In this document: in pieces, positions 5,719 to 12,940 of the stretch
Layout: every line of letters starts with the position of its first letter
Position numbering within the stretch: the stretch's first letter is position 1
Origin: a virus
Taxonomy: Duplodnaviria > Heunggongvirae > Uroviricota > Caudoviricetes
Strand: one strand, 5' to 3'
Virus record (IMG/VR): IMGVR_UViG_3300044807_000039
Location: 64,001 to 128,000 of that record
Length of the DNA: 64,000 nt
The notes under the pieces: generated by a model
Told to the model about the DNA's origin: nothing
The model's input: the letters and a program-made list of their open reading frames with translations, nothing else
The model's database searches: none
Position numbers and translations under genes: made by a program

Positions 5719-6798
5719 GCGAGGGGTAGGGTGCATATAGGGTATGCATACGCATTATATGCGTATGCATATATCTATATTCTACTGTAGGCGCATACCT
5801 ACTACATATGGTGTAGGGAATGAGGGAATATTGTATAAAGCAGATATTAATAAAAGCGTCGAAAAGCATTAAATAAAGGCGCATTTACCCCTAAAAAGCT
5901 TTAATTAACCCGCAAATGCATTAGAAAGGGCCTATATGCGTACAATAGCAAAGCCAATGTTTGTAATTATCTTTATTGCAATCATCATTCTTACCTACCT
6001 AGGTATGGATTGGGCCTTTGAATTCATTAAGGGCCTATTTAACTATAAGGCTACAGGGCACTAATCCTTTAATTGATTACTCTAAGGTGATATTGACCCT
6101 AGTCTGAAACAAACAATAATTACACACTGTTACATTAGCCTATATACGCGTCTATATGGGGGTGCTATAGGGAAAGGGTTGTATTAAGCTATACGCCTAC
6201 TCCCCTACTACCCCCGCCATATACCCCTAGGTGTGTATATAGGACCATACAAGGGCATACAGGGGTACATACGCATGGTGTGTGTACGTAGGGCATGGGT
6301 GTATGGGTGCATAGGCAGGCTCATAGCTAGGGCATGGTGTGCATGGTGGTGTACATAGGCGTACATACATACACATATAGCTATGCATATATAATTAAAT
6401 AGAATAGCAATACATATACCAATACCATTGTGCTAATAGGATAACGAGGGGTGAGTAGGATAGGGTATTAGCATTACTCTATTCTCTATTCATTCATAGT
6501 GATACATTCAATAGCTTAGCTCTATTCATTAGTATTGATCCCCGCATTTATTTTTAATTGAATACATATTCAAAAGAATGGCCCACCAATTGATTATTGA
6601 ATGGGCCATTCATTGAATTAGAATGCGAATTAAAATGCCTCCGAATATGTAAAAAGAATTGATTACCATTCTTTTCTTTACAATTCACAATTCATTTAAT
6701 GTGCGCACTATTTATTTAATTGTTTTTTCTTTCAACCCTACATCGTATACGTTACAAAGTTTGTATCAAAATGTTCCAATTAAAAAGTTACTTAAAGA
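5719..6798. other. long non-coding convergence region rich in palindromes and purine-pyrimidine alternation
   Basis: No credible ORF; 13-bp perfect inverted repeat at 5743-5771; CATA/TATG/GTGT-rich tract at about 6190-6400; AT-rich from 6400 to 6790. Confidence 0.7.
6576..6611. terminator. putative bidirectional terminator
   Basis: GAATGGCCCA / TGGGCCATTC 10-bp inverted repeat in AT-rich flanks between convergent arms. Confidence 0.5.
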
Positions 6799-7017
6799 CT
6801 AGGACCCTTTGCGAATCTTTTTGTATCCGCTTAATTTGATATCCCAAATCTTTTGCTCGTAATGTCTTTTCAATTCAAGCAAACCGGGGACACTAGAAGC
6901 TTGTCCTAGCATTGTTTCTACATATCCTCGCTTGGCTGTATTTTTCACCAATAGGGCCATGCTATCCAGAATCGTATCTATTCCTTTAATGGCTGCCTGA
7001 TAGTCTTCTATTTCCAT
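6799..7017 (-). CDS. hypothetical protein
   Basis: 72-aa ORF, TAATG coupling to the upstream gene. Confidence 0.7.
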   Translation of the reverse strand: MEIEDYQAAIKGIDTILDSMALLVKNTAKRGYVETMLGQASSVPGLLELKRHYEQKIWDIKLSGYKKIRKGS

Positions 7018-7184
7018 TACTTCCTAAACCCCGGTTCTTCTATTGCTGCTCTAAGGTCATCTATTAGTCTAAGTTGGGACAATAGAATCAATTCCTCCCG
7101 GCTGGATTTTGTTTTCAAAAACTCCTCGCCGAGTTCTTCTTCTTTGTTATTAAGCCATACGTTTAGGCTCTGCTCAAAATCCAT
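7017..7184 (-). CDS. small hypothetical protein (55 aa, not in track)
   Basis: MDFEQSLNVW...EPGFRK*, TAATG overlaps at both ends. Confidence 0.7.
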   Translation of the reverse strand: MDFEQSLNVWLNNKEEELGEEFLKTKSSREELILLSQLRLIDDLRAAIEEPGFRK

Positions 7185-7276
7185 TATGGTCTCCATAATC
7201 TATAGAGCTTGACCCCACACCAAAGGATCCCAAGCCCAATTACTGCGAGGAATCCAATGGCAAAGGTTATGGTCAT
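7184..7276 (-). CDS. 30-aa single-TM membrane peptide (not in track)
   Basis: MTITFAIGFLAVIGLGILWCGVKLYRLWRP*, coupled by TAATG to the next gene. Confidence 0.6.
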   Translation of the reverse strand: MTITFAIGFLAVIGLGILWCGVKLYRLWRP

Positions 7277-7278
7277 TA

Positions 7279-7821
7279 CTAGCTGACTTCCGGCCAGCTG
7301 TTTACGCTACGCTTGTCTCGGTTTTCAGCTTCCCGGCTGATTTTGTTTCCTAGTGCTTGCCAGGTTGGTAAAGGGGTATCAAGCTTAGCAATATAGATAT
7401 CTGCCTTTCCTGCTGGGTCAAAGCTTACCGTTGGCATGTTATTGCTAATGTAAACAAAGTACTTGTCGCGGAATTTAATAGCCGCTTCATGCCAGCCCGG
7501 CGACTTATCCAGCGTGGTATCCGCACGGTGTGCATCCCAACCTGCATTAGCAATCAAACCCCAAGCAGCTTCCAGCATATCGTCAACCAATTCTTTTTCC
7601 TTATTTTCCTTGGCTACAATCGAGTCCTTTTCCTGCTGGATTTCTAGCTGCTTAGTTAGGATGCTAAGCGTACGGCCGTATTCATTAATTTTGCGGCTGA
7701 TATCGCGCGGGTTGTCACCACCAATTGCGTCCGACTTAGCGTTGGTGAATCGTACGGCAAGCGCAGCAATTCGGTATTCTAGACTGCTAATTGCTTTGGT
7801 TAGGTTTTCGGTTTGGGTCAT
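7279..7821 (-). CDS. hypothetical coiled-coil protein
   Basis: 180-aa ORF, RBS AAGGAA. Confidence 0.8.
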   Translation of the reverse strand: MTQTENLTKAISSLEYRIAALAVRFTNAKSDAIGGDNPRDISRKINEYGRTLSILTKQLEIQQEKDSIVAKENKEKELVDDMLEAAWGLIANAGWDAHRADTTLDKSPGWHEAAIKFRDKYFVYISNNMPTVSFDPAGKADIYIAKLDTPLPTWQALGNKISREAENRDKRSVNSWPEVS

Positions 7822-7855
7822 TGTTTTCCTTTACTATTCAATTACCGCTTGTAAA

Positions 7856-8011
7856 TTAGACCTCTAGATTTTTAATTACCTGATTGAGTTCGTTGACCAA
7901 TAGAGCAAGCTGTATCGCTTCATCTGGATTAAGCTTTCCTTCTGCCAGGGTGGCCTCCCCCGCGTTTAAAATTGCCGCGAGCATATTCTCATAAAACTTT
8001 TTTAGATTCAC
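7856..8011 (-). CDS. small hypothetical protein (51 aa, not in track)
   Basis: GTG start, VNLKKFYENMLAAILNAG...KNLEV*. Confidence 0.55.
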   Translation of the reverse strand: MNLKKFYENMLAAILNAGEATLAEGKLNPDEAIQLALLVNELNQVIKNLEV

Positions 8012-8012
8012 T

Positions 8013-8222
8013 CTATTCCTCAAACAATTCATACTCAGCTATTCCGTAGCCCCGCCACACCAACGAATACTTTTTTATTTGGCTATCATCAATAAATTCA
8101 TATTCGAAGGGCGGCGGATTTGCTACTTCTGTATGCCTACCTAGCAAAGGACCATTACGAAAATACCCAATGACCAGCTCCGAATTTGCTTTCGCAAGCT
8201 CAGCCACGATGCTTGATTTCAT
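8013..8222 (-). CDS. hypothetical protein
   Basis: Likely start MKSS at 8222 (track start 8267). Confidence 0.6.
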   Translation of the reverse strand: MKSSIVAELAKANSELVIGYFRNGPLLGRHTEVANPPPFEYEFIDDSQIKKYSLVWRGYGIAEYELFEE

Positions 8223-8442
8223 AGGTGGTAATCTTATTGTCTTCCCACTCAATACTAGTAGTTCCATTCTGACCGTGGATATATTGCACGTCCTCGATGG
8301 AATTGTAGAAGCTAATGCTTGTGTGCTCGGTAAGCCACGTCATTGCCACTAGACCATTATCGAATTCGGTACCCTGTGCGACGCGGCCTTCGCCGCTAAT
8401 GCCGCTGGTATCCTTAGTCCTATTTAGCCAAAAATTACGCAT
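8200..8442 (-). CDS. hypothetical phage protein (DxSG(V/I)SGxGxVAxGxEF motif)
   Basis: 80 aa, RBS AGGAG. Confidence 0.75.
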   Translation of the reverse strand: MRNFWLNRTKDTSGISGEGRVAQGTEFDNGLVAMTWLTEHTSISFYNSIEDVQYIHGQNGTTSIEWEDNKITTYEIKHRG

Positions 8443-8928: not shown

Positions 8929-9375
8929 CTACCATTGGATATCCTTTGATTTGTTTAATGGATAGGTTTTCCTAAGCTCTCTAATTCCCCCGGGAACTAG
9001 AATTGAAACAACCTCACTCACTACCTTCTTAGGCATATCGTAATACTTAGCAATCTTTGTAATGGTAATTCCTTGCTTAATGTATTCGACGTATTGCCAA
9101 CCCGGTTGCTTTGGTCGGAGATTATCTAAAGCAGGATTCATTTTGTCATGGTCAATATGCTGCAATCCACCAAATGGAATCTCGGATTTAAATGCTCGCC
9201 ATATCTCCCTATGCACCAGAATTCCAATTGAATTTCCGTCCCCTTTAGGAATCGTTGTGAATGCATATCCATTTTTATTGGTGGACAGCTGGAGGTGTCT
9301 TTGCTTATGCGGGGACCAGATTCGGCCGTCTTCGCCTAGCATGTAGCCCGTGTTGTACAGGTCGTGTGTCCGCAT
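8929..9375 (-). CDS. HNH endonuclease with C-terminal HTH-like segment
   Basis: LVHREIWRAF...HIDHDKMNPALDNL HNH motif; RBS GGAGG. Confidence 0.75.
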   Translation of the reverse strand: MRTHDLYNTGYMLGEDGRIWSPHKQRHLQLSTNKNGYAFTTIPKGDGNSIGILVHREIWRAFKSEIPFGGLQHIDHDKMNPALDNLRPKQPGWQYVEYIKQGITITKIAKYYDMPKKVVSEVVSILVPGGIRELRKTYPLNKSKDIQW

Positions 9376-9424
9376 GTGTGCCTCCGTCCGTGCGCGTAAG
9401 TGCAGTCGTAACTACTTCTCTTCG

Positions 9425-9453
9425 AGTTTAGCACACCATTAAAATGATGTCAC
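9425..9453 (-). promoter_or_regulatory. sigma70-type promoter of the HNH gene
   Basis: GTGACA-N17-TAAACT with TGTG extended -10. Confidence 0.5.
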
Positions 9454-9486
9454 CCTTGCTGTGCCGCCCTATTTATTAAGGTCAGA

Positions 9487-9635
9487 CCCCGTAACACGCG
9501 AAAGTAACAAATGGTAACACGGTGGGTAACAACCAAAAACCTACACAGAGAGTGAGAGTAACAAAAAGTAACACTACTCTCTGTGTAGGTGACAAGCCGT
9601 AACACGGGGGTGACACTAGCTTCCGGTGAGTAACC
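9487..9635 (+). repeat. phased 8-bp direct-repeat array RGT(A/G)ACAM with a nested 14-bp inverted repeat (candidate clt locus)
   Basis: GT(A/G)ACA cores at 9491, 9504, 9514, 9526, 9558, 9568, 9589, 9599 and 9610, plus GTAACC at 9630; inverted repeat CCTACACAGAGAGT 9540-9553 / 9576-9589. Confidence 0.85.
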
Positions 9636-10143
9636 AGATGTTAATTTCATTCAAATCCTGCTGGGTGATACCAATAGAAGGATCAACGTAGTGGAGCTTT
9701 GTACGTCCGTGCCTACGCCCTAGCATGAATGCCTGGCCCTCGCGCTTAAAAAATTTGAAGTCATCGTCCATCCAAACCAAATCCCGATTCTTTGCAAAGT
9801 CACCGACGCCCTTAAATTTCCAGACATTCTTATTGCGCAAATCGAAACGGTCAAACTGGACGACCGGCCAATTCTCAGTAAGTCCGATCTTGGGACCAAC
9901 CCAACTATTAGCCTCATCCATCCAGGTTGTAGCCCACGCCAATTCCATTCCCGCGTTCTTCGCATATTGGGTTAGCATAGCCCCATGGTCTTCATTCAAC
10001 CAAACCCTAAATGGCTTGTCGGTCCAACCTGCTGGGGAATATCGATAGGTACTGTAGCCCTCGGGTCGGCGATGTGACTTGGCTCGCCAAGGATTCAATG
10101 GACCATCGACATCAACCAGCAGGAGCGGTTTCGTATTTGTCAT
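9616..10143 (-). CDS. HAD-superfamily phosphatase (HAD_SAK/RNA-repair type)
   Basis: LLLVDVDGPLNP (DxD motif), WATTW and WMDDD motifs; start MTNTK at 10143. Confidence 0.8.
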   Translation of the reverse strand: MTNTKPLLLVDVDGPLNPWRAKSHRRPEGYSTYRYSPAGWTDKPFRVWLNEDHGAMLTQYAKNAGMELAWATTWMDEANSWVGPKIGLTENWPVVQFDRFDLRNKNVWKFKGVGDFAKNRDLVWMDDDFKFFKREGQAFMLGRRHGRTKLHYVDPSIGITQQDLNEINIWLLTGS

Positions 10144-10152
10144 TGGCACTCC

Positions 10153-10686
10153 TTAGCATTTAGTATTCCTGATGGCATTCGTTTCGCGCTGATCATAGGA
10201 GAGCCTGTAGAATTCCTTTACAGCCCTGTATCGACCAATGTAATTACAGATAAATTTTGGCTGCGGCAAGTAGCTACTAGGATCCTTGTCGCCCTTACTC
10301 CTATTTGAACTTTGGGAGACTGCAATAAGGTTGGTAGGATCGTTGTAAAATTTTGCCATTTGTGAGCGTGTCCAAAGGTTAGCACCGGAGTCCCAAGCTT
10401 CCTTGAGTGGGACAATGTGATCGATGTCCATCTTGCTTGAATCGGTAATAGCAGCACTATCGTATGCACTAATCCAGACACCACTAATAGGGTGGCAATC
10501 ACTGTCCACTATGACGTCCTTACCGTCCCGCTGCAAGATCTTTTCACGCGTGTCACAGTTGCCCGTTTTCGACCAGTCGCCCCAGGAATCCCGATTGTAG
10601 GCAGCGCTATAATCAACGCTCTGGGTACATCCGGTCAGAGCAAGAACCGACAGCAGAATCGAACTGATAATAATCTTAAGCTTCAT
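10153..10686 (-). CDS. DUF1524-type HNH nuclease, predicted lipoprotein
   Basis: Signal peptide with lipobox LTGC; DIDHIVPLKEAWDSGA and NLIAVSxSSNRSKGDKDP motifs; start MKLK at 10686 with RBS AAGGAG. Confidence 0.8.
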   Translation of the reverse strand: MKLKIIISSILLSVLALTGCTQSVDYSAAYNRDSWGDWSKTGNCDTREKILQRDGKDVIVDSDCHPISGVWISAYDSAAITDSSKMDIDHIVPLKEAWDSGANLWTRSQMAKFYNDPTNLIAVSQSSNRSKGDKDPSSYLPQPKFICNYIGRYRAVKEFYRLSYDQRETNAIRNTKC

Positions 10687-10702
10687 GAAGACTCCTTTTA
10701 TA

Positions 10703-10747
10703 AAAAGCAAGTGCGCCACATAGAAATTTAACTATGTGGCGCACTGC
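10703..10747 (-). terminator. intrinsic terminator after traB
   Basis: 13-bp perfect inverted repeat GTGCGCCACATAG/CTATGTGGCGCAC followed by TTGCTTTTT on the minus strand. Confidence 0.75.
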
Positions 10748-10754
10748 CTATTTA

Positions 10755-12599
10755 TTAATTTCTCTTGCGTAGATTCGGTGGGAACTTGTAGGTTGCATCC
10801 TCCTTCTCAAGCTCGCCTCCATCTACCTTAACCTGTAATTGCTTATATAGCCATGCTCGTGACAAACCTGTTACCAGCAAAACATCTGCTAGCTTGGGTG
10901 CCTCAAACTCGGTACCCTGTGCTCGCAAGTCCTGCAATGCTTCCTCAAGTACAGCCTTAGCTTCCTCAGCTGGCATCTTAACAGGCTTGTCAAACTCTAG
11001 CAAGACGTCGTGCTTGGCTTTGAGTTCTTCAAGCGCTTCTAGATCATCTTCCACTTCTTCACGTTCCTCCTCCGGATATAAGTCGTCTAGCTCTTCTTCA
11101 TCATTCCCGGGATCTTCATCAAGCTCTGCCTGATATAGATCTCCCAGCGCTCCCAGCGTAACAGGGTCGGTCTCATGGGGCAAGCGGTTCTTTCCCGCCT
11201 CCTCAAGCTCCTCATTTTCTATTAGCAGGGTTCGAGCTGGAGTAGTCCAGTACTCGTCATCTGCGTCAGGATGAACAAGGTAATTATAGCCTTGACGCTT
11301 GTTTTTCCAAATAGCTGGGTTTGCACCTGCATCTGTAACCTCATCTGGCAAAGCAAATGTTGCATCCGAGATGTCTGCTACGCCGAAGCATAGCACCGAA
11401 CTAAATTGCGCGCGGGCAGCTGTATCAACCGCAACATGACTAGCACGCTGCAAGCTGGCTGTAATTTGAATACCAACTGAACGGGCGGTCTCCATCATCT
11501 TAATGAAAGCGGGGTTATTGGCAATAAGCCCCGAAGCCTCTTCAACATGCAAATAAATGAAGCTTAGACCGCAACCTGGCTCCCATTTAGCCAATCGCTT
11601 TCTACCTAGATAGTCAGCTCTAGCTTTTACTAGCTTGGGAAACTTTTTAAAAAGCAGGTCCGCAATTTTTTCCTGGGTAATAACCCAGTCAAGGTAAGGC
11701 ATGACAACACCAAGGGTTTGTTCTCCCTTGGTAATATCAATTACCCACATCTCGGTTTCGGAACGTTTGAAGGCTTCTGCAAAAATGACCTTCGCGGCTT
11801 CGGATTTACCCGAACCATTCATTCCCTGGATGAGCATATGCACCGCACCTAAATGCTTTGAATGCAAACTAAACTGCTCTGGAGTTCCGTCTTCGTACCA
11901 CCCAATGGTCATTGGATCATTTGGTGTTAACTTTTCATCCAACCAAACGTATGGTCTGGTTTCCTTAAGCAGATCTCGCTTTACTAATTTGAAATATGCT
12001 TTGGATGAATCGTCGGCATCGGTACGAATGCGCACTCCGTTCGCAGGTGCCCCAAACAGGCTAGCTAATCGGGGCTGTAGCTTTTGCAGATCGTCTACCG
12101 TGTTAGAACCTCGCTTGAGATTAATAACTCCCTCAGCCGTATCCTTGCCACGTTTTGTAAACTTGTAGCGAGTCCCCGGCATGCCTGCATCGGTGAAGAA
12201 CTTATCTATTGGATCTTCCCGGGGTTCCGAACGAATGGCATGTCTAATGTTCCAACTAAGACCTAGAGTTAACCCACCAAGTAACCAAACGAGAAATATG
12301 CTTGGACTGGGTCCAGCAATTACCATTGCCATTATAAATCCACCAGAAGCGATCATACTCAATAGGGAATGGAATCGACCGAATTCTCTTCGATCTTGTG
12401 AAGCCTTCCAGGTGAATAAACTAAGTATGCTTGTTGAAATACCTAACGATGCTGCTATCTCTGCTGTGTAGTTTGCTTTAAGCCCGATAAGCCAAAGAAC
12501 GACACTTAACGCGCCAACCAAGCCCATAGCAAAATAGGGTTGCAAGAGTAGCATACCCTGATTTGAGGTCTTTTCTACTACCTTCTTGGCACGTTTCAT
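10755..12599 (-). CDS. traB: TraB-like FtsK/SpoIIIE DNA translocase (actinomycete conjugative transfer protein)
   Basis: 614 aa; N-terminal TM helices, Walker A GMNGSGKS, Walker B-like HVEEA, ARSVGI...SLQR motifs, acidic linker, C-terminal wHTH (GLSRAWLYKQL). Confidence 0.8.
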   Translation of the reverse strand: MKRAKKVVEKTSNQGMLLLQPYFAMGLVGALSVVLWLIGLKANYTAEIAASLGISTSILSLFTWKASQDRREFGRFHSLLSMIASGGFIMAMVIAGPSPSIFLVWLLGGLTLGLSWNIRHAIRSEPREDPIDKFFTDAGMPGTRYKFTKRGKDTAEGVINLKRGSNTVDDLQKLQPRLASLFGAPANGVRIRTDADDSSKAYFKLVKRDLLKETRPYVWLDEKLTPNDPMTIGWYEDGTPEQFSLHSKHLGAVHMLIQGMNGSGKSEAAKVIFAEAFKRSETEMWVIDITKGEQTLGVVMPYLDWVITQEKIADLLFKKFPKLVKARADYLGRKRLAKWEPGCGLSFIYLHVEEASGLIANNPAFIKMMETARSVGIQITASLQRASHVAVDTAARAQFSSVLCFGVADISDATFALPDEVTDAGANPAIWKNKRQGYNYLVHPDADDEYWTTPARTLLIENEELEEAGKNRLPHETDPVTLGALGDLYQAELDEDPGNDEEELDDLYPEEEREEVEDDLEALEELKAKHDVLLEFDKPVKMPAEEAKAVLEEALQDLRAQGTEFEAPKLADVLLVTGLSRAWLYKQLQVKVDGGELEKEDATYKFPPNLRKRN

Positions 12600-12940
12600 T
12601 AGACTATCTTAAACTTATCTACCTTAGTCTTCTTTGGTGCTGCGGCAAGCTCCTCAACGAAGCGCTGCTCAAACTGTATCCAGGTTGCGGTACTCTGACC
12701 GGCCGCTAATTTACAAAGCTCTGCTGCCTTGCGTAAGGTTCCCGCAACAACTCTTGCACGAACGGAATTCCTAATGCCCTTAATGCTACGTAGGTTCGCT
12801 TGTAGCATTTCGGCGGAAAAAGAAATATCAATGTATAACTCGTAGAGGATAGAACGAAGATCTGTTAGGTATGCCCTAAGCTCCTCGTTATCCCCTAGTT
12901 CGCGATTCTTAATTTTCGCCATCTTTGTAGCTGCTATCAC
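12599..12940 (-). CDS. traA: TraA-like plasmid/AICE transfer protein
   Basis: GTG start at 12940 after AGGAGG; RARVVAGTLRKAAE...TWIQFEQRF..EL pattern recalled from actinomycete TraA; TAATG-coupled to traB. Confidence 0.6.
   Translation of the reverse strand: MIAATKMAKIKNRELGDNEELRAYLTDLRSILYELYIDISFSAEMLQANLRSIKGIRNSVRARVVAGTLRKAAELCKLAAGQSTATWIQFEQRFVEELAAAPKKTKVDKFKIV

Follow-up and report, generated by a model that had tools for sequence, protein, structure and literature searches.

We identified, in the genome of a large tailed phage, an array of short repeats that is probably the clt-type locus recognised by the phage's own TraB translocase, and class it as a known type of site in an unusual carrier. 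In Streptomyces plasmids and AICEs, clt together with TraB makes up the minimal conjugation machinery, in which the TraB motor pushes double-stranded DNA from cell to cell. The clt reading had been put forward in an initial annotation of the DNA, and is now supported by TraB and TraA homology, linkage to traB, positive controls and covariation, all of them comparative lines of evidence. The stretch of DNA analysed (the window, 64,000 nucleotides) comprises bases 64,001-128,000 of an IMG/VR virus record that is complete (132,127 bp) and has terminal repeats; the phage DNA comes from soil metagenomes and has a GC content of about 44%.

The genome encodes a tailed-phage gene set (portal, protease, capsid-type virion protein, a 2,066-aa tape measure, minor tail proteins and endolysin), along with ribonucleotide reductase and a large DNA polymerase. 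Its portal shares ~49% identity with the portals of lytic Streptomyces phages in the Stanwilliamsviridae (Beuffert, Blueeyedbeauty, Annadreamy), the nearest cultured kin. A search of the complete 132,127-bp genome turned up no tyrosine integrase, serine recombinase, resolvase or ParB, so the phage looks lytic. Genes between window positions 6,000 and 18,500 are oriented leftward, and the order in that direction is traA-like gene, traB, GmrSD_C/HNH-type nuclease, HAD-like gene, array, AT tract, inverted unit with -35, TACGACTGC block and HNH gene. The features are as follows.

12599-12922, minus strand: traA-like gene whose stop codon overlaps the start of traB, to which it is translationally coupled; assigned by profile NF041213
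10755-12599, minus strand: traB, for a 614-aa FtsK-type dsDNA translocase, by homology and model membrane-anchored with a C-terminal winged helix (C-terminal domain at about residues 538-614, recognition helix at about residues 581-593); its Walker A sequence is GMNGSGKS
9616-10719, minus strand: two cargo genes between traB and the array; basal relatives lack them and have the array right at the traB stop
10153-10719, minus strand: cargo gene for a GmrSD_C/HNH-type nuclease with a lipoprotein signal
9616-10149, minus strand: cargo gene for a HAD-like protein
9630-9635, minus strand: tenth, degenerate unit (GTAACC on the plus strand), inside the 3' end of the HAD-like ORF
9491-9616, minus strand: core array of nine co-oriented units that read TGTYAC on the gene strand and GTRACA on the plus strand, recognised by positions, phasing and homologous arrays in relatives
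9535-9589, minus strand: hairpin with a 14-bp perfect stem (extendable), nested in the array with two repeat units in its loop, from folding and sequence
9470-9488, no strand: palindrome GGTCAGACC plus a short AT-rich tract, conserved in relatives just past the last repeat
9448-9455, plus strand: lone inverted unit copy (TGTCACCC on the plus strand), overlapping the -35 of a promoter-like site
9402-9410, minus strand: TACGACTGC block with a GC-rich leader behind it, separating the array from the next gene; present once in this genome and conserved in all relatives
8929-9375, minus strand: HNH endonuclease gene downstream of the array; the gene at this place varies among relatives

The array comprises nine GTRACA cores and one GTAACC variant within 145 bp, all in a single orientation and with no core on the opposite strand: GTAACA at 9491, 9504, 9514, 9526, 9558, 9568 and 9599, GTGACA at 9589 and 9610, and GTAACC at 9630. 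On the gene strand the unit reads TGTYAC(C). The array region (126 bp) holds 7 of the 13 GTAACA and 9 of the 28 GTRACA occurrences of the whole window, and elsewhere in the window GTRACA reaches at most two copies per 160 bp, so that the enrichment greatly exceeds what chance would give. Across the whole 132,127-bp genome this is the top-density same-orientation 6-mer array, and it occurs once. The best-fit period of the ten positions is 10.6 bp (Rayleigh R 0.85), a fit reached by random placement in 1.5% of trials. The direct repeats are accompanied by one nested 14-bp inverted repeat and one inverted unit, a layout typical of clt loci, which consist of several imperfect direct repeats of 7-9 bp, usually along with inverted ones. 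Most particulars of the initial annotation stood: the nine cores lie in one orientation where it had placed them, the unit spacings are as it gave them (near multiples of 10.5 bp), the variant at 9630 is present, and the perfect 14-bp inverted repeat (9540-9553/9576-9589) matches exactly. Its RGT(A/G)ACAM consensus holds for 7 of the 9 units and fails for those at 9491 and 9599, which start with C; likewise, the array does lie 1.1 kb 3' of traB (1,120 bp from the stop) and does occupy most of the 9376-9615 gap that it was said to fill, but its tenth unit falls inside the preceding ORF.

Judged by profile alignment, the 614-aa protein is a true full-length homologue of actinomycete plasmid TraB: it matches NF041214 plasmid_TraB over profile positions 21-631 of 639 (E 2e-111, 373 bits), scoring below an equivalog cut-off of 800 bits that pJV1's own TraB (784) also misses. 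A protein search found ~60 relatives on contigs up to 140 kb, with more distant matches to NCBI-named plasmid transfer protein TraB of Streptomyces and Streptosporangium; identity to named plasmid TraBs is 28-33%, and the phage protein is further set apart from these by its sub-cut-off score and its own motif. Searching the TraB family profile against the PDB found FtsK (2e-8). In the full-length AlphaFold model (pLDDT 86), four N-terminal helices precede a motor domain, and a winged helix forms the C-terminal part; Foldseek matched the motor best to that of E. coli FtsK (E 1.9e-15). The N-terminal helices, predicted to be long and hydrophobic (residues 2-121), suggest that phage TraB is membrane-associated. 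Modelled alone (AF2, pLDDT 87), the C-terminal domain has H-S-H-H-S-S topology, and its Foldseek matches are winged helices only, some of them DNA-bound, although generic and weak (E 0.03 or worse) and without FtsK-gamma among them. This TraB-type winged helix occurs once in the genome, as does the array, a point in favor of pairing the two. The TraA match to NF041213 plasmid_TraA (E 3.6e-13) scores under the strict equivalog cut-off; relatives match PF28214 (TraA-like), and traA adjoins traB in every case.

Co-occurrence of array and traB in related phages, which the initial annotation had suggested checking, was complete among 15 informative loci (the window, L005-L010, L015, L016, L119-L122, L137 and L138): each has traA-traB and then an array of like type. 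The trailing block (AT tract, inverted unit, TACGAC(TG)) is likewise present in 15 of 15. L011-L014, L017 and L020 are the same loci as L005-L010, while L139 and two further contigs, lacking usable DNA 3' of traB, stood outside the array comparison. The flanking genes are rearranged among relatives; a Rv2179c-like exonuclease gene, for example, precedes traA in one subclade but follows the array in the other. In basal lineages of the TraB tree the array starts 2-18 bp past the traB stop, and only the six-member subclade that includes this phage has 0.65-1.4 kb of extra genes in between, so the 1.1-kb gap is secondary. Typically a clt lies at the translocase gene's 3' end or shortly past it; this placement would thus apply here too, the gap being explained by inserted cargo.

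We also looked for arrays without traB. There are 18 portal relatives that lack TraB; the two viewed in full share 0 of 13 gene-block proteins and have 37% GC, and closer relatives are fragments that stop short of the region. Streptomyces phage Beuffert has no TraB and no GTNACC triple, which is weak evidence because Beuffert is a distant relative and the pattern was tuned to the GTCACC units of the relatives; in the present genome only 4 of the 9 units end in C.

Linkage of repeat arrays to traB extends well beyond these phages. A profile search of viral contigs yielded 28 loci, many of high GC, and 29 traB loci entered a blind scan that took the most locus-specific same-orientation 6-mer array per ~10-kb locus. 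In 20 of the 29 the start of the top array falls at -14 to +655 bp relative to the traB stop, mostly within +83 bp (binomial P = 6e-16, for loci that are not fully independent). The motif differs by lineage (GAACAG, GTGGCACC, GTTGCACC, GGGGTGA, CGTGACA, TGACAC, CGGAAAG and others), and spacings pooled over the 29 arrays peak at 10-13 and 19-24 bp. Two plasmids served as positive controls: for pWTY27 the blind scan gave TGACAC in four copies starting 13 bp before the traB stop, and for pJV1 it gave CGCACA in nine copies starting 7 bp past the stop. Both plasmids have the same traA-traB order as the phage, and in both inverted copies stand beside the direct repeats. The pWTY27 repeats are the clt bound in vitro by the Tra translocase, and those of pJV1 are a clt essential for transfer (PMC3583192; PMC4447253). 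On these comparisons, arrays directly 3' of traB are a general property of the TraB protein family.

The repeats also vary together with the TraB recognition helix. Over the 29 loci, motif groups match recognition-helix groups, the same helix going with a shared motif, and a small helix change goes with a small motif change (TDMSR with GTGGCACC, TDMTR with GTTGCACC). Within the phage family the recognition-helix residue after 'AWL' is His, Tyr or Arg; in the phage studied here it is Tyr586. His lineages have (T/C)GTCACC; Tyr lineages have T or C as the central base, with TGTTAC of a third Tyr lineage (L137) lying inside a longer 12-bp unit; and two Arg lineages (L012/L122 and L120) both have TGTAACC, each being sister to a Tyr lineage with TGTYACC. 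Covariation of repeat and helix, another check suggested in the initial annotation, was thus found, in that the central base tracks the residue after 'AWL', with few independent contrasts. Such a correlation is what one would predict for a repeat read by the TraB winged helix, again with the proviso that the contrasts are few.

On the gene strand the nested hairpin folds with a dG of -37 kcal/mol (z -6.4), a stability equalled by 0 of 200 shuffles, and is followed by T5 (U5 in RNA). A hairpin followed by U5 looks like an intrinsic terminator of the leftward traA-traB operon, and we consider that it probably terminates the traA-traB transcript; its sequence is not kept among relatives. Beside the array lies the AT-rich tract of ~12 bp (9470-9481), and ~40 bp beyond the array end there is a promoter-like site on the gene strand, GTGACA-17-TAAACT with a TG extension. 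The inverted unit overlapping its -35 matches the local repeat in relatives (GGGGTTACA where the repeat is TGTAACC), and this placement at the -35 of the next promoter may link TraB occupancy to downstream expression. The TACGACTGC block and a GC-rich CGCGCGCAC-like leader (window 9376-9420) are kept in L005-L010, L119-L122, L137 and L138. Reading TACGACTG as a repeated phage promoter was rejected because the full block has a single copy in the genome.

These surroundings invite explanations of the array that involve no TraB. It could be an operator or enhancer for a regulator of the next promoter (TraA-like, a host factor or another phage protein), its proximity to traB reflecting nothing but operon layout. 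The local layout fits this: traB is 1.1 kb away, a promoter-like site comes immediately after the array, the -35 of that site coincides with an inverted unit tracking the local motif, and a terminator-like hairpin inside the array marks an operon boundary. Yet the array lies within a few bp of traB also in unrelated high-GC elements whose downstream genes are quite unlike, the motif tracks the TraB winged helix, and the equivalent arrays of pWTY27 and pJV1 are experimentally defined clt loci (PMC3583192); we regard the operator as unlikely, although such a role, alone or alongside that of clt, is conceivable. An OmpR/PhoB-type response regulator (PF00486, Trans_reg_C) had no match in the 132-kb genome; a regulator of host origin is conceivable. 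Alternatively, TraA could be the array-binding protein, since its presence alongside the array is as strict as that of TraB.

The array might instead consist of iterons of the phage replication origin: an initiator would attach to these phased units and open the adjoining AT tract. Same-orientation, helically phased repeats at a single-copy locus, with an AT-rich tract and an inverted copy near a promoter, do recall iteron plasmids; against this, the AT tract is only ~12 bp long, the DNA polymerase gene lies ~51 kb away, and across distant elements the conserved partner of the array is traB, also on plasmids with replication loci elsewhere. No match to a Rep-type or other initiator family was found near the array, where the neighbours are the HAD-like, GmrSD/HNH nuclease and HNH genes, and we hold an origin to be improbable, more so than an operator. 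Both of these options had been named in the initial annotation (origin iterons, OmpR-type operator), and both fare worse than clt, as neither the neighbourhood nor the genome contains a Rep-type or OmpR-type gene. A function in RNA, as a 3'-UTR or small RNA whose UGUUAC motifs titrate an RNA-binding protein, seems the most far-fetched: every unit is on the transcribed strand and two lie in the loop of a very stable hairpin, but that hairpin is not conserved in sequence, half of the units lie past the terminator-like T-run, and 10.6-bp phasing is a property of duplex DNA; Rfam gave no credible family match for the region. The rivals thus have some support and fit the cross-family linkage to traB less well.

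Under the clt reading, TraB would be anchored in the membrane through its four N-terminal helices and, by homology with FtsK and pSVH1 TraB, would act as a hexameric dsDNA pump. Its C-terminal winged helix, we infer, would read the 7-bp unit TGTYAC(C), and the nine to ten co-oriented units on one helix face would allow several winged helices to be bound together, loading the TraB ring onto the phage genome at a single site and with a single polarity. ATP-driven movement could then carry phage dsDNA across the membrane or a hyphal cross-wall of a mycelial actinomycete host. A recognition site on the phage genome makes the phage genome the presumptive cargo. Binding of TraB to the array is suggested by the sequence evidence above; translocation of the phage genome between compartments is a speculative extension by analogy. 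By analogy with pSVH1 TraB (PMC4447253), it is an attractive possibility that phage dsDNA passes from one hyphal compartment to another or enters spores. Still more tentatively, and with some doubt on our part, apparently lytic Streptomyces-type phages may keep the TraA-TraB-clt module so as to pump their replicating genome as naked dsDNA into neighbouring compartments. If so, the routes would be hyphal cross-walls, adjacent hyphae or prespores, and phages could spread or persist in multicellular bacteria in a capsid-independent, conjugation-like way.

Among known systems, FtsK-gamma is a winged helix on an FtsK-type motor that reads short polar KOPS motifs, which set the loading site and direction. 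KOPS are scattered and skewed over the whole chromosome, whereas the phage motif is concentrated at one locus and has no genome-wide skew. Plasmid TraB and, by prediction, phage TraB are membrane-associated, hexameric FtsK-like pumps whose C-terminal winged helix reads short repeats on their own replicon. The closest layout is that of pJV1, which like the phage has the order traA, traB, array, with nine same-orientation repeats in two blocks split by an inverted repeat, and whose array, 7 bp past the traB stop, is placed as in the phage's basal relatives. The two differ in repeat sequence, in the 1.1-kb insertion of the phage, and in carrier, a high-GC 11-kb plasmid versus a ~44% GC, 132-kb tailed phage. 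pWTY27 shares with the phage 7-bp direct repeats at or just past the translocase gene 3' end and an inverted copy further downstream; its TGACACC resembles the TGTCACC of the phage family, but it has four copies against nine to ten, and its core is TGACACC rather than TGTYACC. Binding and transfer have been demonstrated for pWTY27; for the phage array both are putative. The Streptomyces plasmid-phage pZL12 (Zhong et al. 2010, as cited in PMC4487206 and PMC3583192) reportedly depends on a tra gene for conjugal transfer; it is like our phage a phage-related replicon of a mycelial actinomycete with a tra gene, but is a plasmid prophage with ParA and ParB, whereas our phage has no detectable integrase, resolvase or ParB.

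The TraB family was found in 0 of the 50,697 records of INPHARED (GenBank phage records), searched by near-identity and protein searches with the array region, the phage TraB and a relative's TraB as queries; a plasmid TraB query gave motor-domain matches only, in Bacillus, Listeria and Ralstonia phages. The module thus lies so far outside experimental phage work, and our literature search found no paper on a TraA-TraB-clt module in large lytic-type tailed phages. Here the whole module (TraA, TraB and co-varying array) is a conserved core feature of a family of ~105-140-kb tailed phages in which no lysogeny or plasmid-maintenance genes were detected. A site on the phage genome makes phage DNA the likely substrate, so that virion-free spread in mycelial bacteria becomes a testable idea, and the naturally occurring helix-motif combinations (Tyr, His and Arg with T/C, C and A) offer a means to dissect DNA reading by TraB-type winged helices.

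Several further observations concern the relatives and the surroundings of the module. Beuffert (MT952852.1; L135, L136) and similar cultured Stanwilliamsviridae are tRNA-rich and Ro60-carrying like this phage and are without traA-traB, so the module marks an uncultured sister clade. Six relatives (L119, L120, L121, L122, L137 and L138) encode, a few genes past the array, homologues of the anti-CBASS proteins Acb5 and Acb2/Tad1, and the leftward block therefore mixes counter-defence genes with the transfer module. In L137 (4330-4500) the 12-bp unit TGTTACTACGCG occurs 8-9 times at a spacing of ~21 bp, interleaved with inverted GTAACA copies, which points to an additional determinant of specificity or to binding by another protein. 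The nuclease encoded at 10153-10719 (minus strand) has an LTGC lipobox ahead of its GmrSD_C/HNH-type domain and, given this lipoprotein signal peptide, may be secreted or membrane-tethered; in L139 a GmrSD_C gene likewise lies 3' of traB. In pWTY27 (L123, locus 6804-8264) a gene that RefSeq annotates as 'phage major capsid protein' lies 0.8 kb downstream of traB-clt, a hint of traffic between TraB plasmids and phages. Finally, where the rightward and leftward gene blocks converge, window positions 6060-6800 form a ~750-bp gene-free block full of alternating purine-pyrimidine tracts (GTGTGTACGTA, CATACATACACATATA), which contains the second densest 6-mer array of the genome (TACATA in five copies, near 6266-6411); in relatives, similar Pu/Py-rich sequence follows the TACGACTGC block.
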